DNA from: Deltaproteobacteria bacterium
GTDB lineage: Bacteria; Desulfobacterota; Desulfarculia; JACQYL01
Length of the DNA: 64,000 nucleotides
NCBI GenBank assembly: GCA_016208165.1
Contig: JACQYL010000001.1
Coordinates: 8,099-72,098, forward strand
Direction: 5' to 3'
The number at the start of each line of letters is the position of its first letter. Within the stretch, counting starts at the first letter, position 1. The notes below the pieces were generated by a model. The model was not told where the DNA came from, did not search any database, and saw nothing but the letters and a program-made list of their open reading frames with translations. The position numbers and the translations under genes were made by a program. Of the stretch, positions 6,040 through 62,076 are shown piece after piece.

Positions 6040-7775
6040 GAATGCTTTCCCGCAACGCCGGGCCGAAGGCCCAACCCGTGGAACTGATCCTGGATGCCAC
6101 GGATCAGGGGATCTACGTGCTGGATGCCGAAGGACGGTGCACACTGTTCAATCGGGCCGCTTCCGTCATGACCGGCTGGGGGTCCGAGGAGGGGTTGGGT
6201 CGAAGCATTCATGAGCTTATCCACCACACCCGGCCGGGTGGATCTCCTCATCCCCCTTCCGAGTGCTCGGTCCTCGGCGTGCTGCGCACGGGCGAAGGCG
6301 TTCACAAGGACAGCGAAATCTATTGGCGTAAGAACGGCACCCCGTTTCCCGTGGAGTATTCCTCATCACCGATTATCGAGGACGGCAGGACCATCGGTGC
6401 GGTGGTTGTCTTTATCGATATCACGGAACGCAAGAAGGTTGAAAAGGCCCTGAGCGATCGGGAAGAAGAACTGCGGCTCATCTCGGATGCCGGGCCGACG
6501 CTGATTTCCTATGTCGATTCCGGCGGCCTGTACCACTGGGTCAACAAGACGTACGCCGAATGGGTGGGCCTCTCGGCCAGGGAAATACGGGGACTGCACG
6601 TCCGTGAAGTGCTGGGCGAGACGGCCTGGCTGGCCGTTGAGCCATTCGCCGAGCGTGTTCTGGCCGGTGAAGCGGTCACCTACGAGCACCAGTTGCTGAT
6701 GCGGGATGGACCCCGCTGGGTGCGTGGAACCTGTACTCCCGACCTGAATGAAGCCGGTCAGGTGCGGGGATTTGTCGAACACGCGTTGGATATCGGGGAG
6801 CGCAAGGAAGCCGAAGAGACTTACCGTGCGACCTTGAACATCCTCGAAGATTTCGACGAAGAGAAGGCCAACCTGCAAAACCTCCAGCTGGCCACGATGA
6901 ACCTGCTGGAAGACCTCGATGAAGAGCGTCTTAATTTTCAACAGATCCAAAAGGCGACCTTGAATCTTCTGGAGGATATGAATGCCGAGCGGGAGAAATC
7001 GGATCAGACGCAGCGCGCCCTTATGAACATCCTGGATGATGTGGAAGTGGAACGCGTCAAAGCTGAACAGGCCAGGGCGCTCTTGGAATCCGTCAACAAG
7101 GAGCTGGAAGCTTTTTCCTACTCGGTTTCCCACGACTTGCGGTCGCCTTTGCGCGCCATCAGCGGATTCACCCAAGCATTGATGGAAGATTGGGCGCCGC
7201 TGCTGGACGATGATGGCAAGCGCTATCTCGCTCTCGTGCAGGAAAACGCCCATAGGATGGGTCAGCTCATCGACGACCTGTTGACGTTTTCGCGGCTCGG
7301 GCGGCAGACCATGACCGTGACCGAAATCGACATGGCCGACCTGGCGCAATCCGTGTATGATGAACTTGAAACCCGGACCTCGGGGCGCAACATCGCTTTC
7401 ACGATGGGTGCGATTCCGCCGGCCCAAGGAGACAAGGCGCTGATACGTCAAGTCCTGGTGAATCTGATTTCCAACGCCGTAAAGTTTACCCAAACCAGGG
7501 AACGGGCCCTGATCGAGTTCGGCTATGAAACCCAAGGGGGGGACGGTGCTTACTTCATTCGGGACAACGGAGTAGGCTTTGATATGCGGTACGTCGACAA
7601 GCTCTTCGGGGTGTTTCAGCGGCTGCACTCGGTGACGGAGTTCGAGGGCACCGGCGTGGGACTCGCGCTGGTGTACCGTATCGTCACCCGTCACGGCGGT
7701 TCGGTTTGGGCGGAGGGCCGTCTGGATCGAGGAGCCGCCTTTTACTTCAGCTTGCCGCAGAAAGGCACAAGATGA
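6036..7775 (+). CDS. PAS-domain sensor histidine kinase (HisKA + HATPase_c)
   Basis: A GTG/ATG start overlaps the stop of the upstream gene. Two PAS-like segments, then four 21-aa repeats (LN.LED.DEE...), an H-box FSYSVSHDLRSPLRAISGF and an ATPase G-box GTGVGLALVYRIVTRHGGSVWAEG. Confidence 0.9.
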   Translation: MRMLSRNAGPKAQPVELILDATDQGIYVLDAEGRCTLFNRAASVMTGWGSEEGLGRSIHELIHHTRPGGSPHPPSECSVLGVLRTGEGVHKDSEIYWRKNGTPFPVEYSSSPIIEDGRTIGAVVVFIDITERKKVEKALSDREEELRLISDAGPTLISYVDSGGLYHWVNKTYAEWVGLSAREIRGLHVREVLGETAWLAVEPFAERVLAGEAVTYEHQLLMRDGPRWVRGTCTPDLNEAGQVRGFVEHALDIGERKEAEETYRATLNILEDFDEEKANLQNLQLATMNLLEDLDEERLNFQQIQKATLNLLEDMNAEREKSDQTQRALMNILDDVEVERVKAEQARALLESVNKELEAFSYSVSHDLRSPLRAISGFTQALMEDWAPLLDDDGKRYLALVQENAHRMGQLIDDLLTFSRLGRQTMTVTEIDMADLAQSVYDELETRTSGRNIAFTMGAIPPAQGDKALIRQVLVNLISNAVKFTQTRERALIEFGYETQGGDGAYFIRDNGVGFDMRYVDKLFGVFQRLHSVTEFEGTGVGLALVYRIVTRHGGSVWAEGRLDRGAAFYFSLPQKGTR

Positions 7776-8212
7776 TCGATTGTGAAACGGAGATCGTTCT
7801 CGTGGAGGACAATCCGAACGATGCGGAACTCATTACGAGGGTGCTCAAGAAACACGATCTAGGCGACAATTTGGTCATCCTAAGGGACGGCGCGGAAGCC
7901 CTGTCGTTTCTTTTCGGGGAGGACGGCTGCGTCAAAGGATCCCTTGGCCCCCTCAGGTTGATTCTACTGGACTTGAAACTTCCGAAAGTCGATGGAACCG
8001 AGGTGCTGCGTCGAATCAAAACCGATGAGCGCACCAAGAGTATACCGGTCGTCATCCTGACTTCTTCATCGGAGCAGCGCGATCTCCATGATACTTACAA
8101 CTTGGGCGCCAACAGCTATGTGACAAAGCCGATCAAATTCACCGACTTCGCCCAAGTGGTGTCGGACGTGGGATCGTACTGGTTGCGTCGGAACAAATTA
8201 CCCGACCTGTAG
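7772..8212 (+). CDS. single-domain response regulator (CheY-like receiver)
   Basis: Internal Met MIDCETEIVLVEDNPNDAELI...LLDLKLP..DG...KPIKF overlaps the kinase stop (ATGA). Receiver-domain Asp pocket and conserved Lys are present. Confidence 0.8.
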   Translation: MIDCETEIVLVEDNPNDAELITRVLKKHDLGDNLVILRDGAEALSFLFGEDGCVKGSLGPLRLILLDLKLPKVDGTEVLRRIKTDERTKSIPVVILTSSSEQRDLHDTYNLGANSYVTKPIKFTDFAQVVSDVGSYWLRRNKLPDL

Positions 8213-8224
8213 CGGGGGATCCCA

Positions 8225-9904
8225 ATGAACGAGAAGCTCCGAATACTACTTCTCGAAGACAATTTCTCGGATGCAGAGCTGATTCAGCGCGAACTGCGCA
8301 AGTTCGGTTTCGATTTCGAGGTGCGCTGGGCCGAGAACAAGGCCGCTTTTCTTGACGCGTTGGATACGTTTGTGCCCGATATACTTTTAGCGGACTATGC
8401 TCTCCCAGGATTCGACGGCATGGCCGCCCTATCCCTGGCGCGGCGTCGCTTCGAGGATATACCGTTGATACTCGTGTCCGGAGCGATCGGCGAGGAAACG
8501 GCCATTGAGTGCCTCAAGGCCGGAGCGACCGACTATGTCTTAAAGCAGCGGTTGAAGCGGCTCGGGACAGTCATCCGGCGAGCACTTTTGGAATCCGAGC
8601 AATTGACCGAGAGAAAGCGGGCCGAGGAAGCCCTGCGGCAGGCCAAGGACGAGCTGGAACACAAGGTCCGGGAGCGAACGGCCGAGCTGGTTCGCACCGT
8701 CGACACGCTCCAGGAGGAAATCGCTCAGCGCCGTCGGGCCGAGGACGACGTGCGGCTGGCTAACGCACAACTGCAGGAGCGCGCGGTTCAATTGCGGGCT
8801 CTGGCCCGTCAACTGACCGTTGTCGAGAGCCGCGAGCGCAACCGAATAGCCAAGATCCTGCACGATCATCTGCAGCAACAGTTGGCATCCGCCAAGCTTC
8901 AGGTCACCTGGCTGGATCAGCTGACGGGTGACGATCTCGCCCTGGCTGCGGCGCGCATAGAAGATATTCTATCCGAGGCGATCAAGGTCTCACGCTCGCT
9001 CACCGCGGAACTGAGCCCTCCCATTTTGCACGAGGCGGGACTGGAGGCCGGGCTCGAATGGCTGGTCCGCCGGATGCTGGACGAGTACGCCCTTCGGGTC
9101 GATCTGACCGTCGACGACAGATCCGAGCTCGATGAGGACGTGAGAATCATGCTCTTCGAGTCGGTGCGCGAATTGCTCTTCAACGTGGTCAAGCATGCCA
9201 AGGTATCGTGGGCCGAGGTGCGGGTACAACCTGTGGATGAGACCGGCATGCTCATCACGGTCAGAGATGAAGGCGTCGGATTTGATCCCCTCCAATTAAA
9301 GCCGTCTGGAGATAATTATCCCGGATTTGGGTTGTTCACGATCCAAGAGCGGATCGACCTGATCGGCGGCCACTTGAAGATCTCGAGCGCCCTGGAAAAG
9401 GGTAGCTGTTTTTCGTTACTCGTGCCATACGCGCATCAGGCCGCCGCGCCGCTTTCCGGCGCGTCCTACCCCGAACCGGCGCAAACGTGCGCCGAAACGG
9501 TGCTCGAGGATGAGGCGCCGCTAATCCGTGTCTTGATTGCCGACGATCACGCCATTTTTCGCGACGGTATCGCCCGCCTGTTGAACCGTGAAAGGGATAT
9601 CCAGGTGGTCGCCGAGGCCGGCAGCGGGAGGGAAGCCGTTGAGTTGGCGCGTAAGACGGCGCCGGACCTGATCCTCATGGACATCTCGATGCCCGAGGTC
9701 AACGGCATCGAGGCCACCCGGATCATTTGCAGGGAGTCACCGGATATTCGGATCATCGGTTTTTCCATGTACGAAGACGAAGAGCGGTCTCTTGCGATTC
9801 TAAAGGCCGGCGCCGTTGGGCACAAGACCAAGGGCTGCGCGGCATCCGATCTGCTGGAAGCGATCCGCCGGTGCATGCGCGCGAAATCGGTTGGAGGACC
9901 GTAA
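8225..9904 (+). CDS. hybrid sensor kinase: REC - HisKA_3 - HATPase_c - REC
   Basis: N-terminal receiver (LLLEDNFSDAELI...LADYALPGFDG). NarX/LiaS-type H-box (ERNRIAKILHDHLQQQLASAKL), an ATPase domain, then a C-terminal NarL-like receiver (RVLIADDHAIFRDGIARLL...LILMDISMPEVNG) with no HTH. Confidence 0.85.
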   Translation: MNEKLRILLLEDNFSDAELIQRELRKFGFDFEVRWAENKAAFLDALDTFVPDILLADYALPGFDGMAALSLARRRFEDIPLILVSGAIGEETAIECLKAGATDYVLKQRLKRLGTVIRRALLESEQLTERKRAEEALRQAKDELEHKVRERTAELVRTVDTLQEEIAQRRRAEDDVRLANAQLQERAVQLRALARQLTVVESRERNRIAKILHDHLQQQLASAKLQVTWLDQLTGDDLALAAARIEDILSEAIKVSRSLTAELSPPILHEAGLEAGLEWLVRRMLDEYALRVDLTVDDRSELDEDVRIMLFESVRELLFNVVKHAKVSWAEVRVQPVDETGMLITVRDEGVGFDPLQLKPSGDNYPGFGLFTIQERIDLIGGHLKISSALEKGSCFSLLVPYAHQAAAPLSGASYPEPAQTCAETVLEDEAPLIRVLIADDHAIFRDGIARLLNRERDIQVVAEAGSGREAVELARKTAPDLILMDISMPEVNGIEATRIICRESPDIRIIGFSMYEDEERSLAILKAGAVGHKTKGCAASDLLEAIRRCMRAKSVGGP

Positions 9905-50208: not shown

Positions 50209-51813
50209 TTATTCGAAACGGATGTCGTCGACGTTGATGTGACCCCAGCCGCTGCTCGATTGATCCACAATGCGGATTCGGGCGGTCCGGCCCAGGAAAG
50301 GCCTCACGTCCCAGACCAAGCTCTCCATGGTCTCATTGCACTTGCCGGCGGCCTTTCTTTCCACTTTGCCGCCAACCAGCAGTTCCATGCGCACCTTGGA
50401 TTCATCGCATCCTCCGCCGATCCGAAATCGGATATTCGGCTCGGTGATGGTAAAGGGGTCCGAAAGGAGTGTTCCCTGGGGCCCATCTCCCTGGACCGCC
50501 CCCGGTGGATCCGATGGACGGGGCCGCTTCTCAAATCCCCCTATCCAGTAGTCGCCTTCATGGCCGGACGGCTGTCCTCTCCGTCGGGCCGTGGGGTTGT
50601 CCCCATAGGTGGGCTGATGGGTAAACGCATTACCCGTCTTCTTCCATCCGGGCAGCTGCGGATTTTCGAAATCCCAACTGATTTCCGCGGAGCCGGGAGA
50701 CGCTAAAGGCTGGGCGCCGACGTCTTCCCCGGATTTCGGAGCTTTACCTTCCGAGGCCGGTCCCAGGTCAAGGAAGCGGACGTCGTCAAAATTGATGTGC
50801 CCCCACCCTGCGCTCGACCCGTCCACCAGTCGTATGCGCGCCGATTTCCCCTGGAATTTGGAGACATCCCAATAGACGCGCTGCATGCTCTCGTTACAAT
50901 TTCCGGTGGACGCCCGGACAACGCGCCCATCTACAACGAGTTCCGCGCGCGCGGTAGTCATGTCGCAGCCGCCGCCCAAGAGAAAGCCGATACCCGGTTT
51001 GGCGATGACAAACGGCGACGAGGTGAGGGTTCCCTGCGGGCCATCCCCTTGTATCGCTCCGGGCCGGTCAAAAGGTCGGGGACGCCTTTCGAATCCGCCG
51101 ATCCAATAGTCTCCTTCGTGCATGGACGGCTGACCTCGGTGGCGGGCCGTTGGGTTGTCTCCGTAGGTGGGCTGGGATAGGAAAGCATCTCCCGTTTGTT
51201 CCCATCCCGACAGGTCACCGGTCTCAAAATCCCATGTAGTTTCCGTGGCTTCCTCGGTTTGAATCGGCTCCTTTTCTCCGCCGGTGGTTTCCGCCTTGGC
51301 CGGCGGCGTTACTGAAACCGGGGGAACTTCCGTTTTTTCCGTTCCGAGAAGCCCTCCTATCAGGGTGCGAGTCAGGGTAGTGAGGAGATTCAGATCGTTG
51401 CCGCTCACGTTGCGCCCCAATTTGGCCTCTCCGGTTTTCACGTCGATCATCCTCGAGTTGATGGTATAGGCCGTGCCGATTTTGACGACCGAACCCACGA
51501 TGATGAGATCCGCGCCCAGAAGCTTGCCGAGTTCCACGGCGCTGCGGTCATCGATCACACCGGACATCTGAAGTTCCTGTTCGGAAAGGGCCCTTCTGAT
51601 TTGAGCGCGTTCCACAACGCGAAATTGTTGGGTGCCCACCAGTTCGGTCCGCATGATCTCGGCTACCGCTTTTCCGAGGTATTCCTCGGAGCCGATGCTT
51701 TCGAAATCCAGAACGGCAACGGTTGGTTTATTCTCCGCGATTCCGGTGCAAACCACGAACAGCATGGCGAGACAGACCACACTGGTGATCTTTGAAAAGA
51801 ACGAGGGCTCCAT
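50209..51813 (-). CDS. lipoprotein: CsgG/LpoB-like N-terminal domain followed by two tandem approx 165-aa beta-rich repeats
   Basis: Signal peptide with Cys (LFVVCTG). TVAVLDFESIG...RVVERAQI..AL.EQELQMSG is CsgG-like. Then WDFE.G.L.GW..TG.AF..QPTYGDNPTAR.RGQPS.HEGDYWIGGFE.RPRP.D.PGA.QGDGPQGTL.S.PF.I...I.F..GGGCD...RMEL.V.G.V...A.G.CNE.M....WDV..F.G..ARIR.VD.SS.GWGHIN.DD.RF occurs twice. Confidence 0.7.
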   Translation of the reverse strand: MEPSFFSKITSVVCLAMLFVVCTGIAENKPTVAVLDFESIGSEEYLGKAVAEIMRTELVGTQQFRVVERAQIRRALSEQELQMSGVIDDRSAVELGKLLGADLIIVGSVVKIGTAYTINSRMIDVKTGEAKLGRNVSGNDLNLLTTLTRTLIGGLLGTEKTEVPPVSVTPPAKAETTGGEKEPIQTEEATETTWDFETGDLSGWEQTGDAFLSQPTYGDNPTARHRGQPSMHEGDYWIGGFERRPRPFDRPGAIQGDGPQGTLTSSPFVIAKPGIGFLLGGGCDMTTARAELVVDGRVVRASTGNCNESMQRVYWDVSKFQGKSARIRLVDGSSAGWGHINFDDVRFLDLGPASEGKAPKSGEDVGAQPLASPGSAEISWDFENPQLPGWKKTGNAFTHQPTYGDNPTARRRGQPSGHEGDYWIGGFEKRPRPSDPPGAVQGDGPQGTLLSDPFTITEPNIRFRIGGGCDESKVRMELLVGGKVERKAAGKCNETMESLVWDVRPFLGRTARIRIVDQSSSGWGHINVDDIRFE

Positions 51814-52149
51814 GTCAGGACTCCGTTTCGATTGGGTGACTTTAACCTGCCTGTGTTTCTGGAGACGTCTCACCTGCGCGCCGGGAATTCGGACCCGTCT
51901 TCCACGGCTTGGGAGAGCCCCCTGACCGGGGACTCTCTTCCCGCAGTGATCGTGTCCAGTCTTCTATACCTCTTGTCAAAATTCAACCTTTTTGTCCGGT
52001 TTCGGCTGAACCCGTACAACAAGCGATTGCAGAGAAAGCATCCGGGTGCCGTAAGTATTAACGGGGGGAAAACTTTTCAAAAAACTCTTGGAATGTCTCA
52101 CGGCATAGCCCGAGCTTGACTGGTCGGGCTATTTTATATATGAAAAACT

Positions 52150-52787: not shown

Positions 52788-53852
52788 TCAGGGTTCCAAA
52801 TTCAGCGAAGAGGCATGCTTGCGATAGAGCCCCCGGAACTGGTGGTAGGTGAGGCCCAGAAGCTCGGCCGCTTTATGCTGGCGGAAGCGGGCCTCGAGGA
52901 GGGCCCGCTGAATCAGTCGAATTTCAAGATCGGCCACCTGCCGGGTCAACGGGGTGTCCAGGGCTAGGGCGGGTTCAAGCGGAGACTGGACCGCCGAATC
53001 AGCGGTCTGGCTCTGTTCGGAAGGGGGCGCCAAAACGGATTCAGGGAACGGATCGAAGACGATTTCTTTAATGGATTCAGAGTCGGATCGGTAAACGGCG
53101 CGTTCCACTACGTTCTTGAGTTCGCGTACATTTCCGGGCCAGGAATAGGCCTCAAGGGAGATCATGGCCTCTCGAGTGAACACCGGCAGGGCGTCGTGTC
53201 CCAATTCCTTTGCGATGCGCGAAGCGAAGTGACGCGCGAGAAGAGACACATCTCCCGCCCTGTTCCTGAGCGCCGGCAACAGCAGTACTTCAAAGGAGAG
53301 CCGGTCGAGGAGGTCGCGTTTGAACCGGCCTTCGCGCGCCAGGGCCGGCAAGTCCGCATTGGTGGCCCCGATGATGCGGACATCGACCATTACGACGTCC
53401 GACCCTCCAACCCGTTCAAAAGTGCCGTATTCCACGACGCGAAGAATTTTCTCCTGGGCTTCAAGGGGAATATTGCCGATTTCGTCGAGGAAAAGCGTAC
53501 CCCCGTGAGCGGCCTCGAAGCGCCCTATTCTTCGTTTGACGGCGCCGGTAAACGCCCCCGGCTCATACCCGAAGAGCTCGGATTCGATGAGGCCCGGAGA
53601 GAGGGCCGCGCAATTCAGAGCAAGCAGGGGACTCCTCCAACGGTGGGAAAGATAATGGAGACGGGAGGCGGCCAGTTCCTTACCGGTTCCTCTTTCTCCG
53701 ATGATGAGGATTGGGCGGTCCACACGTGCGGCCCGAGATAGACGCTCCTGGAAATCCAGAAAGGATTCCGACTCACCAAGGCCTTCCTGGGAAGCGAGGG
53801 CGGGCATGTCGGTCTGGTTGCGAGTGAAGGATGACATGGTGTATATTACCAT
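52788..53852 (-). CDS. pspF: sigma-54-dependent activator PspF (AAA+ domain + HTH, no receiver)
   Basis: GERGTGKELAASRLHYLS...ESELFGYEPGAFTGA (GAFTGA motif). C-terminal HTH. Divergent from pspA. Confidence 0.85.
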   Translation of the reverse strand: MVIYTMSSFTRNQTDMPALASQEGLGESESFLDFQERLSRAARVDRPILIIGERGTGKELAASRLHYLSHRWRSPLLALNCAALSPGLIESELFGYEPGAFTGAVKRRIGRFEAAHGGTLFLDEIGNIPLEAQEKILRVVEYGTFERVGGSDVVMVDVRIIGATNADLPALAREGRFKRDLLDRLSFEVLLLPALRNRAGDVSLLARHFASRIAKELGHDALPVFTREAMISLEAYSWPGNVRELKNVVERAVYRSDSESIKEIVFDPFPESVLAPPSEQSQTADSAVQSPLEPALALDTPLTRQVADLEIRLIQRALLEARFRQHKAAELLGLTYHQFRGLYRKHASSLNLEP

Positions 53853-54023: not shown

Positions 54024-54707
54024 ATGGGCGTTTTCAGCAGAGTTCGAGATATCGTGAGTTCAAACATCAATGCCATGCTGGACCGGGCGGAAGACCCGGA
54101 GAAGCTGGTCCGGCTCATGATCCAGGAGATGGAGGACACCCTGGTGGAAATCAAAGCCTCGTGCGCAGGGGCTATGGCAGCCAAAAAACAAACGCAGCGG
54201 GCTTTGGAAGACCACCGGGAGCGGACCCGTTCGTGGGAGCAGAGGGCGGAGCTGGCCGTTGGAAAGGGGCGCGAGGACCTGGCCAGAGAGGCGTTGCTGG
54301 AAAAACGCCGGTACCTGCAGCGCGCGGAGACCCTGGAGGACGAAATGGGTCAGACGCAGGCCATCATTGCCCAATACCAGGAACAGATCGCCCAGCTCGA
54401 GGAGAAGCTGGCCACGGCCAGAGAAAAGCAGCGTCTGCTCGTTCAGCGACACGTTCATGCCCGTGATCGGAAACGAGCCCAGGAAGACATTCGGCGCTTC
54501 GAAACTTCCGATGTGTTCCTGAGGTTCGAGCAGTTCGAGAACCGCATCGAGCGCATGGAAGCCGAGGCGGAGATGGTCAATCTCGGTCGCACTCCGTCGC
54601 TGGACGACGAGTTTGCCCGTTTAGCGGAAGGCGAAGAGATCGAGCGAGAACTCGAGACGTTGAAAGCCAAATGTGGACGAAGGGGCGAAGAACACCGACC
54701 GATGTGA
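54024..54707 (+). CDS. pspA: phage shock protein A
   Basis: MGVFSRVRDIVSSNINAMLDRAEDPEKLVRLMIQEMEDTL is the classic PspA/IM30 N-terminus. An all-coiled-coil 227 aa. Confidence 0.9.
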   Translation: MGVFSRVRDIVSSNINAMLDRAEDPEKLVRLMIQEMEDTLVEIKASCAGAMAAKKQTQRALEDHRERTRSWEQRAELAVGKGREDLAREALLEKRRYLQRAETLEDEMGQTQAIIAQYQEQIAQLEEKLATAREKQRLLVQRHVHARDRKRAQEDIRRFETSDVFLRFEQFENRIERMEAEAEMVNLGRTPSLDDEFARLAEGEEIERELETLKAKCGRRGEEHRPM

Positions 54708-54754
54708 TCGGGATGAAACGGACAAAGCTGAGTTGATCTGCATATGGAGGAAAG

Positions 54755-55000
54755 ATGAGTGAGGTTCTGTTGGCCTTCGTGCTGATCCTGGGTCTGCCCG
54801 TCCTGATCGTGGCGGGATTCTTCCTGATTTGGGTTTTGAAAATCCTCACACGTGGGGGCCCGCATAAGCGAGATGAGGCTCAAGCCGAGGAAACCCGTTT
54901 GATCCAGGAACTCCACCAGGGCCTTTTGAAGATGGAGGAGCGCATCGAGGCCCTGGAAACGATCTTGCTCGATGCGGAAAAAAAGGAAGATCGAAAATGA
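54755..55000 (+). CDS. pspB: phage shock protein B
   Basis: 81 aa with a single TM, then a coiled coil. Position and the 4-bp overlap with pspC support the call. Confidence 0.8.
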   Translation: MSEVLLAFVLILGLPVLIVAGFFLIWVLKILTRGGPHKRDEAQAEETRLIQELHQGLLKMEERIEALETILLDAEKKEDRK

Positions 55001-55401
55001 ATAGAGCGAACGAGAGATCGAGAACCGGTTTGTACCGTTCGCGGCGCGGTGTGATTTTAGGCGTTTGTCGCGGAGTGGCGGACTACTTCGACATATCCGT
55101 ATTCTGGACCCGCGTCGTGTTCGTTGCCGTACTGCTGTTTACAGGCATTTGGCCTATAGCAGGGCTGTATCTGGTGGCCGCCGCATTGATGAAGCCGGAG
55201 CCGGTGGTTCCGTTTCGAACGGAAGTCGATAGGGAGTTCTATAATTCGTATACGGCTTCCCGAGAATTGGGCCTTCATCGTTTGAAAGGCGCCTTCGACC
55301 GGCTCGACCGGCGATTGCGACGCATGGAAGACCTGGTGACCGCTCGGGAGTTCGACTGGGATCGTAGGTTCAGGGGTCCGGATTCGGGTAGAGGTCGATG
55401 A
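54997..55401 (+). CDS. pspC: phage shock protein C
   Basis: LYRSRRGVILGVCRGVADYFDISVFWTRVVFV is the PspC domain. Confidence 0.85.
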   Translation: MNRANERSRTGLYRSRRGVILGVCRGVADYFDISVFWTRVVFVAVLLFTGIWPIAGLYLVAAALMKPEPVVPFRTEVDREFYNSYTASRELGLHRLKGAFDRLDRRLRRMEDLVTAREFDWDRRFRGPDSGRGR

Positions 55402-55631
55402 GGCGCCCCGGCGTTTTTATGGCGGGTCCCGTTTTACAAACTCCGTAGATTCTGATAGAGTATCATATAACCACAAAAAAAGAGCACCGCGCACGTCGAA
55501 TCCGAGGCGCCAGGGTGGTGTCCTTTCCTTTGAAAATCCAGCCCTTCGCGGCTGCATTTTCCACTTCTTTTTCTCGTCGCGAGGGGCTGGAGTCGAATCG
55601 ACCTGCGGGCTGTTCGATCCGGAGTGAACCC

Positions 55632-55994
55632 ATGGTGAGACGGCTTTCGTTTACCAAGTACGAGCATGAAGTCCTTCCTGACTTCAGACAAAAAATCAAC
55701 ATGGCGGAATCCACCAGAGACGTCAGGAACTCCTTCTATCACGCGGCTTCGGAACTCTTCGACAACGTATTCGGAGATGCGGTTCGAATTGATTACGACG
55801 ACATCGAACTCGTGCCGGACTGCGATGATTGTTTTGTCATAAGCGACCGTCTGCGGAAGTCCACGGACTTCGCAACCATATGGAAAGATTCGGATCTGCC
55901 CAACGTTGTTGCTCGGATGGCGAGATCCGCAACGAATCGCTGCAAGAGACTGGAAAAACATTCTGAGAAGACCGACGCCAAAATCAGGATGTAG
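55632..55994 (+). CDS. hypothetical acidic cytoplasmic protein
   Basis: An ORF with moderate GC3 and no recognised motif. The antisense ORF 55434..55997 is about equally long; strand choice is low-confidence. Confidence 0.35.
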   Translation: MVRRLSFTKYEHEVLPDFRQKINMAESTRDVRNSFYHAASELFDNVFGDAVRIDYDDIELVPDCDDCFVISDRLRKSTDFATIWKDSDLPNVVARMARSATNRCKRLEKHSEKTDAKIRM

Positions 55995-56200
55995 CAACGG
56001 TTACGCACTCGGCTGATTCCGGCGCGAACAGCGGCCGGCCGGGAAGCCCTGAGTCACGAAAGGGGTCGGCTGCCGAAAGGGAGAGGTGTGGATGCACAAC
56101 GCCCGGTCGGTAAAGTGGTCGGTGCGCCCCGGCGCATGCTCGATCCTGCAGCACGGAGGTCGCCGGCTGCTTAACTCGGGATGCGGTAGGGTGTCGCGGA

Positions 56201-57805
56201 TCAGATACCGAAGATTTCTCGTATTCCGAACAGCAATTTGTCTCTGATCGACGCCTCTTTCCTCCCTCCGGTCAGCGCTTTGAGCCGGACCGATTCGCTC
56301 TCCATATATTTTTGGTCGGACAGCTCGACCGCGCGTTCTTTCTCCGCAAGGCGCGTCGCCAACACAGAACTGATGTTTTCCGCAAGAGCGGGATGGCTCT
56401 TGATGATGTGTTGAAAACTCTTCCTATGTAAGACAAATACTTCGCAATCCGTTTCGGCCGTCACGGTTGCCGAGCGCTTTTCTCCGGTCAGGACGGAAAG
56501 CTCTCCGAAAAAGTTTCCGGCAGTGAGACAGGCTATTCGAGTCCGTTGCTTCTGCGATGAATCCGCATACACCTCCACGCTTCCCGATCCGACGATGTAA
56601 AAGGATTCTCCATCGTCACCTTGCCTGATCAGGGTTTCCCCCTGGGAATAGTACTCGACGTACACTTCGCCGCTCAAGAACCGGAAATCATCATCGCTGA
56701 GGGGGGACAGGAAGTCGATGGATCGAAGTATCTTTTCAACGGCGCTCTTTCTTTCTTCCGGGGTGACTTCGGGTTGCACCCGCACGTCACGAACGGGATA
56801 AGGAATTTTGATGCCGTTCCGCTTAAATTGATACCAGATCCGGCGAAATACCTTATCTTCTATGGCGCGAACCCTATCGTAATCGGTGATCCAAAAACGA
56901 AGCTGGTAAACGATCGCGAAGTCGCCGTATTCAATCAAAAACACGGTGGGAGGGGGGGTCTTCTGGACTTCATCGATACCGAGAGCGCTCTGTATCAAAA
57001 CGGCGGCCGCTTGATTCGGCGGGTGATCGTACGAAACGCCGATGTTCTTTCTGCAAAGATGACTTCTCCAGGGAGCGGAGTAGTTGACAAGGCTCGATTT
57101 CGCAATCGCGTTGTTCGGAACAACGATCATGTCCTCGGATCGGTCCACGAGTTTGACCGAACGCCAGTTGATTTCAATCACCCTGCATTCTTTGCCTTCG
57201 ACGAGCACCCAGTCTCCTATCTTGAAGGGATTGTCCATCTGAATGGACAATCCGGCGAACAGATTTCCAAGCGTATCCTGGAGCGCCAAGCCGATGATCA
57301 GAGAAAATATGGCCGAGGTAGTGAGCAACGAGGTGAAATTGACATTGAAATAGACTCCCAGAAGCCAGATAACAATGATGAGATATAGAATGACTTTGCC
57401 GCTGTCCCGAACCAAAGCGGGTATTTTATGTTTGGACGGTCGACGTCGATAGTGCGCTTCCAGAAAAAGACTCACGGTCCCAATGGCGATATAAACGGAT
57501 ATCACCGCCAGAAGGATCTGTACTAAGGTCGGAACATGACCGGTGTACCCCTGCAGGAAGAAGGCTAGGTGGATGCTCGCCAAAATAGTGGCTATGTGCA
57601 CGACGGACAAGAACCTTCGGTTGGTGGTCTTGAACTGGTCCCACACGTCTTTGAACACCGCTGGAAGAATACGCCTCGTCAGAACCAGCGTCAGGATACG
57701 AACCAGAAGATAGAAGAGGACGCCGCAACCCACGGATAGCGCCATTTGCTCCAGAGCGTTCAGGTTTGAATAGAACGCTCGAATCGATGTTATATAAGGC
57801 TTCAA
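56201..57805 (-). CDS. mechanosensitive channel MscS-family protein with C-terminal cyclic-nucleotide-binding domain
   Basis: TM3/beta-domain MscS motifs (LIIGLALQDTLGNLFAGLSIQMDNPFKIGDWV). C-terminal cNMP domain (FGELSVLTGEKRSATVTA). Confidence 0.85.
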   Translation of the reverse strand: MKPYITSIRAFYSNLNALEQMALSVGCGVLFYLLVRILTLVLTRRILPAVFKDVWDQFKTTNRRFLSVVHIATILASIHLAFFLQGYTGHVPTLVQILLAVISVYIAIGTVSLFLEAHYRRRPSKHKIPALVRDSGKVILYLIIVIWLLGVYFNVNFTSLLTTSAIFSLIIGLALQDTLGNLFAGLSIQMDNPFKIGDWVLVEGKECRVIEINWRSVKLVDRSEDMIVVPNNAIAKSSLVNYSAPWRSHLCRKNIGVSYDHPPNQAAAVLIQSALGIDEVQKTPPPTVFLIEYGDFAIVYQLRFWITDYDRVRAIEDKVFRRIWYQFKRNGIKIPYPVRDVRVQPEVTPEERKSAVEKILRSIDFLSPLSDDDFRFLSGEVYVEYYSQGETLIRQGDDGESFYIVGSGSVEVYADSSQKQRTRIACLTAGNFFGELSVLTGEKRSATVTAETDCEVFVLHRKSFQHIIKSHPALAENISSVLATRLAEKERAVELSDQKYMESESVRLKALTGGRKEASIRDKLLFGIREIFGI

Positions 57806-58291: not shown

Positions 58292-58555
58292 ATGGCTAAG
58301 CATTCTCATGATTTTGTTGAAACGTACGTTGATCTGGTCGGATTCGGTATGGATCGGGAAATAGACGAAGCCACGGTTATCGTCATGCTGCAGAAACTCT
58401 CGGATGACGCGCTCATGGATCTGTTGCGGCATCGTCTTTCCGACGAGGAACTGAAGGACTTGTTCGAGATGGTCTCAAATTTGCTGAAAGAACACTTGTC
58501 CGAGGAAGAATACCATACGTTTTTTTTGAAGGACCGGGAGGAGGAGTCCCTCTGA
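58292..58555 (+). CDS. small acidic hypothetical protein (87 aa)
   Basis: ORF with RBS AAGGA; no motif recognised. Confidence 0.4.
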   Translation: MAKHSHDFVETYVDLVGFGMDREIDEATVIVMLQKLSDDALMDLLRHRLSDEELKDLFEMVSNLLKEHLSEEEYHTFFLKDREEESL

Positions 58556-59188
58556 ACGCATGCATTCCCGTTTTTTCCCGCCGGGATCATCTCCTTCGTT
58601 CAGCGTCGGCTGTCAGAACTCCATGGGTTTGGCGGATAACTTGTCAATCGTTTGACACACGGATAAAATATGAACAGAAGACGGGTAAGATGAGCAATGG
58701 CCGTATAGGAATACAGGATTGTTCTTCGATGAACGGGAAAGAAAAGAGGTTTCTTTTTTCCAGGAGCATCTCCGGTAAAGGTCCGTTCACAGGACGAGAA
58801 GCAAGGTGATGCCTGAGGTCTGTTCAGAGGGTCGAAATCGGCGTCTATTCGAGTTCTCCTGCAGCCCTCGTTCAGCCCACCGACGAGGGCCGGCAGGTCC
58901 CGTAAGGGCGGGTTTGAAACCCGCTCCCAGATCATGATCCGCCTTCACTTTTTCGGACGCGGGTAACCCTTGGTTCCCCTCCAATCAGGATGAGGCGGGG
59001 CGTGAGGAACTGTCGTAGTACGAGCCGGTCTCAGTATCAGACCATTCTTGGGATATCCGGGAGGTGTCGTGTTGGCGGGGCGACGGATTGGCGCATTTCA
59101 AAAGAGGCTTTCGAGCGAGCCTATTGGCACATAAATTGCTCGGTTTAGGGAAAAGCATGTTCCACGCGCCCGATAGACAAGTAAGAAA

Positions 59189-61018
59189 ATGGTGAATAAG
59201 ACCATGACACTCAGTCATATTATCCAAGAGGCGAACCGGAAGCTTGAAACCGAAAGGGACGAACTGGTCAAGGTCGCCAAGGCCGAAAAATACCGGGGTA
59301 CCGTTGATGAAATCATGGAATTCCTGGATCAATACGACGGCCATTTTCAAGACACCAATGTCCAGGTGGTGAAGGCGGCTTTGGAAACGTTTCTCAGACG
59401 TCTTTCTCCCCCTGCGCTTAAACTGACGATGGCTTCCATGAAGCGCCAGGTAGGTATACAACTGGGCTCGGCAACCCAGGAGCCCTCCAATTCAGCTTCC
59501 GGAGGTGGCTCAGTGATCTCTCAAAGCGATATCGACGCTCTGCTCAAGGGGGCCAACGCTTCCGAGGAATCTACAAGCGCTTTCGAACAATCAGAGATCG
59601 ACGCGCTTCTCGGGGAGATTGAGGAACTTGGCCCGCAGTCAGGGAAAAGGCCTTCGGGCACACCGGCGAAAAAGCCGTTGGAAAGGTCTCCCCAAGCATC
59701 CACCGATCTGGGAGATCCAGACTTGATCGTGGATCAATCCGCCATTGATGCGCTTCTTGCCGGAGTAAAAGAGGACGCGAGCGCCAAAAGAACGGCCGGT
59801 ACGCCTTTGGTTGCGAAGAAAACGCCCGGCAAGAGCGTTGGACACGAATCCCGCACAACGGAACGTCCGTTTTTTGAGGAAGAAATAGTCAGTCAAACGG
59901 ACATCGACGCCCTTCTTTCTCAGGGGATGGTGTCCAAAAAAGAAATCGGCGTGGAGGCGGAAAGAGCGCTGGATCCTTCGCTGGTGGAGGAACTGCTGGC
60001 GCAGATTCAAACGGATGCGAAGCCTGAAGAATCAGCGGTGGTGGAAGACGCATCGGACCTCTCTCCCGAGACGGGATTTCCGACATCAGAGGATACGAAT
60101 ATAGATCAATCCTCCATCGACGCTCTTTTTTCGCAGGAAGCGGGGTCGCAGAAAGCACTCGAGGCCGAGGCCCAGGCGGCGCTGGATCAGACTTCCGTGG
60201 AGGAGCTGCTGGCGCAGATTGAAACGGATGCGAAGCCTGAAGAATCAGCGGTGGTGGAAGACGCATCGGACCTCTCTCCCGAGACGGGATTTTCGTCGTC
60301 GGAGGATACGAATATAGTTCAATCCTCCATCGATGCTCTTTTTTCGCAGGAAGCGGCGCCGGAAGAAAAGGACCAACTTGCCGATAGGGATTCATGGCTC
60401 GTCAATGGAACATCCGGTATAGAGGAAGCAGAAGCTCTGCTCGCGCCCGAAGGAGGGCCGATGCAGGCTTTCCCGGAAGAGGAGATGCCGGCCGCCGGAG
60501 AGGCGGCTTCCCCGGAATCTGCGGAGATTCCCATGGCTCCGGATCTGGAAGCAGGCGACGTGCCGTTGGAGATTGAATTACCGCTTATTGAACCCGTGCC
60601 CGATCAGCAGCGTGTGGTGGACGCCATCGTCGAGGCTACACGGAAAAAAGTGTCACAGAATCTTCCGCCCGCCGGCAAGAATCAACCCTCGCCCGGTGAG
60701 CATGTCCAGGGCGCAGTCGTCGGCAAGGAGGCTGCATTCCGTTCGCAAGACATAGGCAGGGAGCGCATTTTAGAAGAAAGAGGCGAGGCGAAAGTGCTGG
60801 ACACCTTCTATCGGATCTATGCCTGCGTCAACGGAAGCTATGAACTCCTATCGGAATCGAGCAGCGCGGAAGAGACGAAACAAAAACTGATGACCGCATG
60901 GATGGATCACGCAGGGAAAGATATTGTAATCAAACGTGTAACCCGAAAAGAGGTGCTGGTCATTAAAGAGGACCTCGATGACGTTCCGGTTCGCCTGGAA
61001 GTCACGTTGGATTCCTGA
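59189..61018 (+). CDS. protein with six tandem FliM-N-terminal-type CheY-binding peptides (xSQ[ST][DE]IDALL) and an unassigned C-terminal domain
   Basis: Motifs VISQSDIDALL, EQSEIDALL, VDQSAIDALL, VSQTDIDALL, DQSSIDALF, VQSSIDALF between roughly 59500 and 60360, including a near-perfect ~210-bp tandem duplication. Stop is 28 bp before fliN. Confidence 0.7.
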   Translation: MVNKTMTLSHIIQEANRKLETERDELVKVAKAEKYRGTVDEIMEFLDQYDGHFQDTNVQVVKAALETFLRRLSPPALKLTMASMKRQVGIQLGSATQEPSNSASGGGSVISQSDIDALLKGANASEESTSAFEQSEIDALLGEIEELGPQSGKRPSGTPAKKPLERSPQASTDLGDPDLIVDQSAIDALLAGVKEDASAKRTAGTPLVAKKTPGKSVGHESRTTERPFFEEEIVSQTDIDALLSQGMVSKKEIGVEAERALDPSLVEELLAQIQTDAKPEESAVVEDASDLSPETGFPTSEDTNIDQSSIDALFSQEAGSQKALEAEAQAALDQTSVEELLAQIETDAKPEESAVVEDASDLSPETGFSSSEDTNIVQSSIDALFSQEAAPEEKDQLADRDSWLVNGTSGIEEAEALLAPEGGPMQAFPEEEMPAAGEAASPESAEIPMAPDLEAGDVPLEIELPLIEPVPDQQRVVDAIVEATRKKVSQNLPPAGKNQPSPGEHVQGAVVGKEAAFRSQDIGRERILEERGEAKVLDTFYRIYACVNGSYELLSESSSAEETKQKLMTAWMDHAGKDIVIKRVTRKEVLVIKEDLDDVPVRLEVTLDS

Positions 61019-61046
61019 ACACGAATCGATGGTAAGGGCATAGGTT

Positions 61047-61496
61047 GTGGAAGAGAACGGCGTCAATACAACGGAAATGGACGATGCCTGGGAAGCCGCC
61101 CTGCGGGAGCAGCGGGACGCAGAAGCGGGTGTAACGCCGACCCAGGCTCAGGAAGACGAGAAAAGCCCGTCTCACCCGGTCCAACAGAGGGAACAGCGGC
61201 TTGGGGACGCTCTTGCGCCGTCACCCGGTACGGCAACCGTTGGTCTGGAACTCCTATTGAGTATTCCCGTTGAGGTGAGTGTCCGCTTGGGCGAGACAAA
61301 ACTGGTGGTGAACGATCTGATGCAGCTGGGCCAAGGAAGCATTGTCGAGCTGGATAAGTTGGCCGGCGCCGATTTGGATCTGATGATCAACGATGTGGTC
61401 ATGGGAAGGGGCGAAGTGGTCGTGGTGAACGATCGCTTCGGACTGAGGGTGACGGAGATCGTTTCACCGGAGGATCGAATCAAGGGACTCGGCTAG
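61047..61496 (+). CDS. fliN: flagellar motor switch protein FliN (SpoA domain)
   Basis: LLLSIPVEVSVRLGETKLVVNDLMQLGQGSIVELDKLAGADLDLMINDVVMGRGEVVVVNDRFGLRVTEIVSPEDRIK is the FliN/SpoA signature. Confidence 0.85.
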   Translation: MEENGVNTTEMDDAWEAALREQRDAEAGVTPTQAQEDEKSPSHPVQQREQRLGDALAPSPGTATVGLELLLSIPVEVSVRLGETKLVVNDLMQLGQGSIVELDKLAGADLDLMINDVVMGRGEVVVVNDRFGLRVTEIVSPEDRIKGLG

Positions 61497-61497
61497 C

Positions 61498-61938
61498 CTA
61501 ATAATCGTTTTCCGCCTCGGCTAAGCTTTGAAACAGCTCCGGGTACTGTTGGGCCCACTGAACAAAAAGAGCGAAATTAACGTAATCTCTGTAATAGACC
61601 ACGAGATCGTCTTGAAAGCGTACGAGCGTGCTACCCGGAACCGTCGCTTCCACACCGTTGTTGAATACCCCTCTCGCCTCCCATTCAACGAAAACCTGGT
61701 TGTCTTCCTGAACCGAGTTCATCACAAGATTCGGGGGAATGGTTTCGGCTTTCCAGATCAAGCGGGCCAGCTTGTTTCCTTTCCGAAGAAGTTGAAGAAC
61801 TTCTTTTCTCCCGAAGGTGGTAAGGTTATTTGCGTCCACGTAGGTCACGTCTTCGGTGAAGATTTCCTCCAGGCGAGCCCAGTTTGCATCCGGCAGCCAC
61901 TGCTCAAGAAAACGCTGAACGATTTCTTTCAACTGCAT
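61498..61938 (-). CDS. NTF2-like/SnoaL-like domain protein
   Basis: Approx 147 aa with a cone-like alpha+beta pattern. Weak assignment. Confidence 0.5.
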   Translation of the reverse strand: MQLKEIVQRFLEQWLPDANWARLEEIFTEDVTYVDANNLTTFGRKEVLQLLRKGNKLARLIWKAETIPPNLVMNSVQEDNQVFVEWEARGVFNNGVEATVPGSTLVRFQDDLVVYYRDYVNFALFVQWAQQYPELFQSLAEAENDY

Positions 61939-62076
61939 GTATGGTTCGCCTTTGAAAAGGAACAAAGTGCTTGTTTTGAAGGAAATCCTGCCTCGGGCTC
62001 GCAGCAGAATGAAGGATTCTTGATCACCGCCTCGGCTGCGTTCCCTTCAATGGTTCGATAACAAGAAGCACTCGCG

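Follow-up and report, generated by a model that had tools for sequence, protein, structure and literature searches.

Why would a bacterium place six copies of the docking peptide of the flagellar switch protein FliM on a single protein, and encode that protein immediately before fliN? The question is raised by a 64,000-nucleotide (nt) stretch of Deltaproteobacteria bacterium (assembly GCA_016208165.1, contig JACQYL010000001.1, positions 8,099 to 72,098 of the forward strand), the whole of which we call the window, where an open reading frame (ORF) of 609 amino acids (aa), the array protein, bears tandem copies of the EIDAL motif and is closely followed by fliN. What is new here is a protein family, found in uncultured relatives of sulfate reducers and paired with fliN, in which a known docking peptide forms a conserved tandem array. 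We found no published account of such tandem arrays, the literature giving the motif in single copy, with CheY and FlhG as its partners. On FliM, the EIDAL motif is the docking site of phosphorylated CheY (CheY-P; PMC6946799; bioRxiv 10.1101/2022.04.21.489128). We infer that the array protein binds CheY-P, is anchored to FliN and resides at the motor, and we favor, with a rough probability of 0.45, the reading that it works at the flagellar switch, in association with FliN, as a multivalent array on which CheY-P docks.

First, the array consists of six clear copies of the pattern [hydrophobic]-[S/D/E/V]-Q-x-x-I-D-A-L-[L/F] (positions in Table 1), as an earlier note on this DNA had claimed. Translated in six frames, the window contains the core Q-x-x-I-D-x-L-[LF] only in the array ORF, where it is found six times, and 20,000 shuffles of the protein returned a mean of 0.004 matches to a stricter pattern, with a maximum of 1. 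Next to the two degenerate copies listed in the table, a third, DQQRVVDAIVEA, lies at aa 472. Because HMMER is unsuited to peptides of about 10 residues (with hmmsearch --max, a 17-position hidden Markov model (HMM) of FliM N-termini did not tell the motifs apart from shuffled sequence), likeness to FliM was scored on a gapless position matrix derived from the N-terminus of Escherichia coli FliM and 64 distinct ones of FliM from Desulfobacterales. On this FliM-N matrix, motifs 1–4 score 12.7–20.3 bits, equal to or above every one of 60,429 background windows, the best of which reached 12.7 bits; the best score over 200 shuffles of the array protein was 15.9 bits. Motifs 1–4 are thus FliM-like beyond the IDALL core, with the copies ending in ALF (motifs 5 and 6) being weaker, and the earlier assignment of the motif to the FliM-N type is supported by the first four copies. 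The likeness outside the core is also seen in motif 1, whose stretch SVISQSDIDALLKGA compares with SILSQAEIDALLNGD in E. coli FliM, a protein that starts MGDSILSQAEIDALLNGDSE.

Conservation singles out the same residues. In an alignment of seven sequences, 16 of the 18 invariant columns fall within motifs 1–4, the spacers differ in length and sequence, and the motifs are the sole invariant parts of the tether across homologs; invariant motifs separated by variable spacers are what one would expect if these are functional short linear motifs carried by a tether that is disordered. The number of copies does vary among homologs, as the earlier note had proposed to survey: members of the family have between 2 and 9, and the first motif always lies 15–20 residues past the N-terminal domain (N-domain).

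Within the array itself, motifs 4, 5, and 6 are covered by a tandem repeat whose 71-aa unit is present about 2.4 times. Its near-identical block (59983–60148 against 60196–60361) is 93% identical over 166 nt by direct comparison, and identity is 85% with the boundaries proposed in the earlier note; hence the duplication of about 210 bp described there is real, with a period of 213 nt, and its description as near-perfect was overstated. Tandem Repeats Finder reported no repeat in the array ORF, whereas a repeat search and the direct comparison did detect one. The close homolog P0012 (P-numbers denote proteins from the homolog searches, and L-numbers the loci compared) carries three copies of another repeat unit, of 85 aa, which differs from that of the window and thus points to an independent expansion.

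Second, the motifs are displayed on a protein of novel architecture. Alignment with homologs divides the array protein into a folded N-domain, a variable tether, and a folded C-terminal domain (C-domain). The tether (aa 95–520, about 430 residues with a net charge of −58 and an abundance of E, D, A, S, and P) varies among homologs in both length and sequence, unlike the two conserved domains that flank it. Scans of the 609 residues against Pfam (E ≤ 1) and NCBIfam (E ≤ 10) found no domain, and in particular neither the FliM middle (CheC-like) domain PF02154 nor CheC, in agreement with what had been said of the protein; SpoA (PF01052), CheZ, LysM, TPR, and FIMAH were likewise not detected with Pfam, nor was any hydrophobic or transmembrane segment found, and the protein is predicted to be soluble. 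Searches for sequence or structure relatives of the N-domain or the C-domain found none, and phmmer with the array region against the PDB sequences gave a sole, spurious match to ApoE. These are two newly defined conserved domains, neither with structural or sequence relatives. The NCBI annotation starts the ORF at Met6 and lists it as a hypothetical protein (MBI4772619.1) of a “Deltaproteobacteria bacterium” metagenome-assembled genome (MAG). That the ORF is a pseudogene or the product of a frameshift was considered and is ruled out by its stop codon and C-terminus, which intact homologs keep.

Could the ORF instead be the N-terminal part of a split or degenerate FliY or FliM, with its SpoA domain now encoded apart, as fliN? 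The order of motifs and then SpoA over two genes does mimic FliY and FliM, and fused array–SpoA proteins exist elsewhere (P0040). However, the C-domain, which the earlier note had suggested might prove FliN/SpoA-like or CheC-like, is modeled by AlphaFold 2 (AF2) as an alpha/beta fold other than SpoA, and its profile aligns to that of FliN with a probability of 1.6% in hhalign. With a C-domain that is not SpoA-like and no CheC domain, the standard FliY and split FliY readings fail. Nor does the array protein lack an identity of its own, given conserved N- and C-domains unrelated to switch proteins and a stop codon retained in intact homologs; the FliN encoded downstream, moreover, is complete, has its own E. 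coli-like N-terminal region, and is read in a different frame. The domain and fold tests effectively refute the unusual split FliY that the earlier note had entertained, and a split origin of either kind is highly improbable.

Third, the downstream gene and its pairing with the array gene point to FliN as a candidate partner. The two genes are separated by 28 bp, as previously claimed, with a GGTAAGGG-like ribosome-binding site preceding fliN. The product matches PF01052 (E = 8.6e-23) and TIGR02480 (91.5 bits, cut-off 84.05), is the only one of the two proteins matched by the FliY model NF005995, via its SpoA part, and aligns by BLASTP over residues 7–148 with FliN of E. coli K-12 at 38% identity (E = 1e-29), the N-terminal MDDxWxxALxEQ motif included. 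Judged from its sequence, it is a complete, orthodox FliN. No terminator-like site was found between the two genes, and the array gene is preceded by a sigma-54-type site that fits the −24/−12 consensus perfectly, whose exact form TGGCAC-N5-TTGC (59125–59139) is matched once in the window, with 0.08 matches expected by chance. Sites at equal distance in L002 (TGGCATATAAATTGCT) and L011 (TGGCATAACTCTTGCT) agree at 10 of 11 positions, L001 has a weaker sigma-54-type variant (CGGCACGGGTTTTGTA), and no such site was found upstream of the array gene in L008. The array gene and fliN therefore appear to be co-transcribed from a putative sigma-54 promoter.

The pairing is conserved among the closer relatives. 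A word-indexed search found seven relatives of the array protein, and further two-domain members (P0015–P0018, P0034, P0037, P0056, P0057, P0068, P0071, P0083, and P0139) came from a full HMM search run on 1.84 billion representative proteins. In all 10 loci examined of the closer clades, which are of Thermodesulfobacteriota type (the window, L001, L002, L007, L008/L012, L011, L019, L020, L021, and L022), which span 34–100% identity of the array protein, fliN lies directly downstream, and the FliN orthologs P0161–P0168 come from contigs that also encode the array-protein homologs. In the sister clade (L007, L008, and L021), the next gene is a fliL on the opposite strand, with a match above the Pfam threshold, and in L001 a methyl-accepting chemotaxis protein (MCP) gene lies 10 kb from the cassette. 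One homolog, P0003, encoded on a long-read contig prone to errors, looks truncated at its C-terminus; P0012, from the same cluster, is intact. On that contig, L002, methylmalonyl-CoA mutase, aspS, and hisS are fragmented together with the C-terminus of P0003, which is consistent with indel errors, so that the apparent truncations there should not be taken as biology.

The constancy of this arrangement bears on another possibility, that the array protein is a free cytoplasmic buffer or sink, an unanchored sponge that sets the level of free CheY-P or the kinetics of the response, co-expressed with fliN through mere co-regulation. A multivalent array in a long disordered tether would suit such a sponge, as would the lack of any known motor-binding domain in the array protein and the distant family members that keep the array and both folded domains without a fliN neighbor. 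We nevertheless consider it quite unlikely in view of the strict adjacency to fliN over 10 loci and so wide a range of protein identity, of the array–SpoA fusions in other lineages, and of the two conserved folded domains, which imply specific partners.

Is this FliN a flagellar one? The array-paired FliNs form a distinct group, and their next-best matches, canonical Desulfobacterales FliNs, align with them over the SpoA domain only. All of the group carry one to three copies of an N-terminal DDxW(A/E)xAL(x)EQR motif, of which E. coli FliN has one; among the best 120 FliN matches listed it is present in six, all six of them array partners, and the canonical Desulfobacterales FliNs of 104–116 aa do not have it. 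One may therefore imagine that FliN here is a paralog in a non-flagellar assembly, in organisms possibly without flagella, and that the motif is a generic amphipathic helix for another receiver-domain protein or an unrelated one. Besides the DDxWxxALxEQR extension that sets these FliNs apart from the canonical ones, such a role would fit the isolation of the cassette, at each locus, from the remaining flagellar and chemotaxis genes, and it would accord with the narrow distribution of the family, which in genome contigs is confined to two GTDB species, known from MAGs of uncultured Thermodesulfobacteriota or “delta proteobacterium”. Yet the protein passes the fliN equivalog-domain cut-off and is collinear with E. 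coli FliN over its full length, N-terminal motif included; fliL adjoins the cassette in the sister clade, the MCP gene of L001 is only 10 kb away, and the same arrays are attached to proven flagellar components. A role outside the flagellum is thus very unlikely.

Fourth, those other arrays indicate that the window protein is not an isolated case. The same HMM search returned 134 unrelated proteins, at least 83 of them with four or more copies of the motif, the maximum being 19. The earlier statement that the motif occurs once per protein therefore holds for characterized proteins, and arrays of 4–19 copies recur in metagenomic ones. At least 50 proteins combine an array of 4–13 EIDAL motifs with one transmembrane helix and a FliL-related domain; two of these, P0008 and P0009 (the latter at L003 10001–11371), are encoded inside complete flagellar clusters, directly after flhF-flhG-fliA, and P0010 and some 50 related clusters belong to the same family. 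In L003, the FliM of the same genome has the N-peptide ILTQNEVDSLL, as compared with array motifs of the form ISQSDIDALL, which are nearer to the E. coli FliM consensus than is the organism's own FliM. An array is also present at the N-terminus of P0067, a genuine FliM encoded in a fliE-flgBC-fliFGHI-fliM-fliY-fliP operon, where the neighbor labeled fliY encodes 323 aa with a C-terminal SpoA domain and no EIDAL motif. P0040 joins an array to the SpoA domain of FliN; its gene lies outside any flagellar cluster, beside that of an SLT/LysM lytic transglycosylase. TPR or FIMAH domains of the kind present in FimV/HubP occur in some other array proteins, and two members of A3 matched Pfam CheZ, perhaps merely through the likeness of the motif to the C-terminal peptide of CheZ, and were not counted as fused to a phosphatase. 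Tandem arrays of the FliM-N-type peptide are a recurrent module attached to motor components, and their presence on FliM, on the SpoA domain of FliN, and on FliL-related proteins ties them to the motor.

Several observations weigh against a docking array for CheY-P at the switch. Motifs 5 and 6 score within the background on the FliM-N matrix. The curated HMMs of FliM and FliY (TIGR01397 and NF005995), to which the earlier note had proposed aligning the repeats, match none of the six motifs as 30-aa fragments, a length at which HMMER is insensitive; the N-terminus of E. coli FliM, run as a control, gave E = 3e-5 and 0.005, and the related array protein P0008 matches the N-terminus of the FliY model, positions 3–37, at E = 0.0025. 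Neither cheY, cheA, nor another flagellar gene was found in the 64-kb window or within 10 kb on either side of the related loci. For the window, where other flagellar genes had already been said to be missing, the search used 31 flagellar proteins and an MCP from two flagellar clusters together with E. coli CheZ, and found no homolog elsewhere in it; E. coli CheY matched two receiver-domain ORFs only (7583–9901), about 50 kb from the array gene. The best 120 FliM and FliN matches listed hold nothing else from the same large contigs, and the distant members P0056 and P0034 have no fliN neighbor (P0057 lies at a contig end, so that its neighbor is not readable). Lastly, the EIDAL motif has a second partner, the MinD-like ATPase FlhG (bioRxiv 10.1101/2022.04.21.489128).

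An array that recruits or sequesters FlhG instead of CheY-P, and that together with FliN tunes flagellar number, flagellar placement, or C-ring assembly instead of chemotactic switching, would agree with the finding that FliM/FliY's EIDAL motif is both required and sufficient for the FlhG interaction in Shewanella and Bacillus-type systems (bioRxiv 10.1101/2022.04.21.489128). It would also agree with the position of the largest array family, the P0008 type, directly after flhF-flhG-fliA, and with the TPR or FIMAH domains that some array proteins share with the polar hubs FimV and HubP; the divergence in L003 between the array motifs and the genome's own FliM peptide hints at another partner or affinity. 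Still, we regard FlhG as an unlikely partner, since the surroundings of the window locus and of its relatives contain no flhG and since arrays occur on FliM itself (P0067), where the canonical role of the motif is CheY-P docking. The motif is, in addition, common to the C-terminus of CheZ, which binds CheY and is not known to bind FlhG.

Known systems offer partial models for a CheY-P docking array. Like the N-peptide of FliM, the array motifs consist of the same motif and flanks (hydrophobic, S/D-Q, two variable positions, I-D-A-L-L, often x-G) in a flexible segment, and the array gene adjoins fliN as fliM does in E. coli; unlike FliM with its one N-terminal copy, the array protein has six to nine internal copies and is devoid of PF02154 and SpoA, and its gene is outside any flagellar operon. 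The FliY of Bacillus and Thermotoga unites an EIDAL motif, a CheC-like phosphatase, and SpoA. Here, EIDAL and a FliN-type SpoA recur over two adjacent genes, whereas SpoA belongs to a separate, complete FliN, the N- and C-domains are unrelated to those of FliY, and the array protein has no CheC-like domain, so no phosphatase is predicted. By analogy with FliY, a role in CheY-P handling at the C-ring is plausible. Both the N-terminus of FliY and the C-terminus of CheZ dock CheY-P with this motif, and the C-terminal peptide of E. coli CheZ (ASQDQVDDLLDSLGF) is of the same class, SQ-x-x-(I/V)-D-x-L-L; the motif thus works as a portable CheY-docking peptide outside FliM. CheZ differs in bearing a single copy on a phosphatase helical bundle, and the array protein has no CheZ domain. 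With the polar hubs HubP and FimV the array protein has in common a long acidic tether and tandem repeats that dock motility or chemotaxis proteins, but it has neither their transmembrane segment nor LysM, TPR, or FIMAH, and its repeats are EIDAL motifs, not of the HubP type. Also similar in design are the P0008-type proteins, P0067, and P0040, which likewise present a tandem array in a cytoplasmic acidic tether and are associated with flagellar components; their anchors are a FliL-related membrane domain, FliM, or SpoA, in contrast to the two private soluble domains and the neighboring fliN of the window family.

How might such a protein act? The flagellar switch is a textbook example of ultrasensitive signaling, and the tethered N-peptide of FliM is thought to raise the local concentration of CheY-P. 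As a docking array for CheY-P, the array protein would be an accessory protein of the flagellar switch working with the FliN encoded just downstream. One of its folded domains, N or C, would anchor it to FliN at the base of the C-ring, and the tether would form a multivalent capture array that enriches CheY-P locally at the switch, widens its capture radius, or lengthens its dwell time there, acting like the single tethered N-peptide of FliM, but several-fold. The multivalent CheY-P docking scaffold at the switch suggested in the earlier note is partly supported. A wider proposal, which we offer tentatively and hold to be doubtful as a whole, is that tandem EIDAL arrays are a widespread, undescribed module on FliL-type membrane proteins, FliN, FliM, and the soluble FliN-partner family, building a multivalent docking cloud for CheY-P (or FlhG) around the motor; the window protein would then be a new switch-complex subunit that plugs onto FliN and tunes the gain, range, or kinetics of switching via the valency of its array, a valency that would evolve fast by repeat expansion.

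Table 1. Positions of the array gene, its motifs and domains, neighboring features, and related proteins; positions refer to the window unless a locus is named.
Feature	Position	Strand	Remarks
Array-protein gene	59189..61018	+	609 aa; N-domain, motif-bearing acidic tether, C-domain
N-terminal domain, conserved	59189..59470	+	aa 1 to ~94; predicted five-helix bundle, AF2 pLDDT (predicted local distance difference test) 75
Motif 1, ISQSDIDALL	59516..59545	+	aa 110-119; 20.3 bits; S111, Q112, D114, D116, L118, L119 invariant
Motif 2, FEQSEIDALL	59582..59611	+	aa 132-141; 12.7 bits; Q134 invariant
Motif 3, VDQSAIDALL	59729..59758	+	aa 181-190; 16.0 bits; Q183, I186, L189, L190 invariant
Motif 4, VSQTDIDALL	59888..59917	+	aa 234-243; 14.8 bits; V234, Q236, D240, L242 invariant; the 213-nt unit begins here
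Tandem repeat	59888..60361	+	period 213 nt (71 aa); ~2.2 units at DNA level
Degenerate motif, LDPSLVEELL	59969..59998	+	aa 261; 6.9 bits
Motif 5, IDQSSIDALF	60101..60130	+	aa 305-314; 5.6 bits, weak
Degenerate motif, LDQTSVEELL	60182..60211	+	aa 332; 9.9 bits; belongs to 27-nt repeat family D2
Motif 6, IVQSSIDALF	60314..60343	+	aa 376-385; 7.7 bits
Clade-conserved linear segment, APDLEAGDVPLEIELP ... DQQRVVDAIVEA	60536..60637	+	alignment A1; second part resembles a degenerate motif, SQQSAVDALLEDA in P0005
C-terminal domain, conserved	60752..61015	+	last 88 aa; predicted beta-hairpin/beta/alpha/beta-hairpin, AF2 pLDDT 84
fliN	61047..61496	+	149 aa; SpoA domain aa 69-139; N-terminal MDDAWEAALREQ motif
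Putative sigma-54-type promoter, TGGCACATAAATTGCT	59125..59140	+	TGGCAC-N5-TTGCT; consensus match; 64 nt upstream of ATG
Small acidic ORF, MAKHSHDFVETYVDLVGFGMDREIDEAT...	58292..58555	+	87 aa; no Pfam/NCBIfam match; ~630 nt from array gene, sigma-54-type site between
SnoaL-like (NTF2-fold) protein	61498-61965	-	convergent with fliN
MscS-type channel	56201-57805	-	with cyclic nucleotide (cNMP)-binding domain
pspA/pspB/pspC	54024-55401	+	
Sigma-54 activator	52788-53852	-	
CsgG-like lipoprotein	50209-51873	-	
Signaling cluster	3280-9904	+	919-aa protein with seven PAS domains; PAS histidine kinase; single-domain receiver 7583-8209; hybrid kinase with two receiver domains
P0067	L017 8001-9530; L018 8001-9530		genuine FliM (PF02154 + SpoA); five tandem N-terminal EIDAL motifs on ~220-residue extension
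P0040	L015 8001-9818		605 aa; ~15 EIDAL-like motifs fused to C-terminal FliN SpoA domain
FliN bearing DDxW(A/E)xAL(x)EQR	window 61047-61130; L007 2297-2860; L008 9360-9875; L021 10272-10853; L022 396-899		

Around the cassette, the small acidic ORF has homologs upstream in L001 and L011, L002 has an ORF of the same size at that position, and L008 has an unrelated one instead; the ORF accompanies the cassette in the window clade only, and its membership of the cassette is uncertain. Farther upstream, the neighborhood from the CsgG-like lipoprotein to the MscS-type channel is syntenic with L002, where a DDE transposase is inserted after pspC; at this point the window has unannotated ORFs only (55434–55997). 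On the other side of fliN, the SnoaL-like gene holds the same position in L001, L011, L019, and L020, and its place is taken by fliL in the sister clade. The sole receiver domains detected in the window are those of the signaling cluster near its start.

A family in whose tether nothing but 2–9 copies of the peptide is conserved would offer a natural experiment on how multivalency serves to capture a signal at the motor, and the variation in copy number between close relatives offers a handle on gain, adaptation, or CheY-P buffering. The case for multivalent capture gains from the arrays found in parallel on FliM, FliN, and FliL-type proteins, and the recurrence of arrays across motor-associated proteins makes motor-proximal multivalency experimentally testable. 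If FlhG were the partner, the arrays would bear instead on how flagellar number and placement are set. With either partner, FliN is a specific candidate to bind the two new domains.

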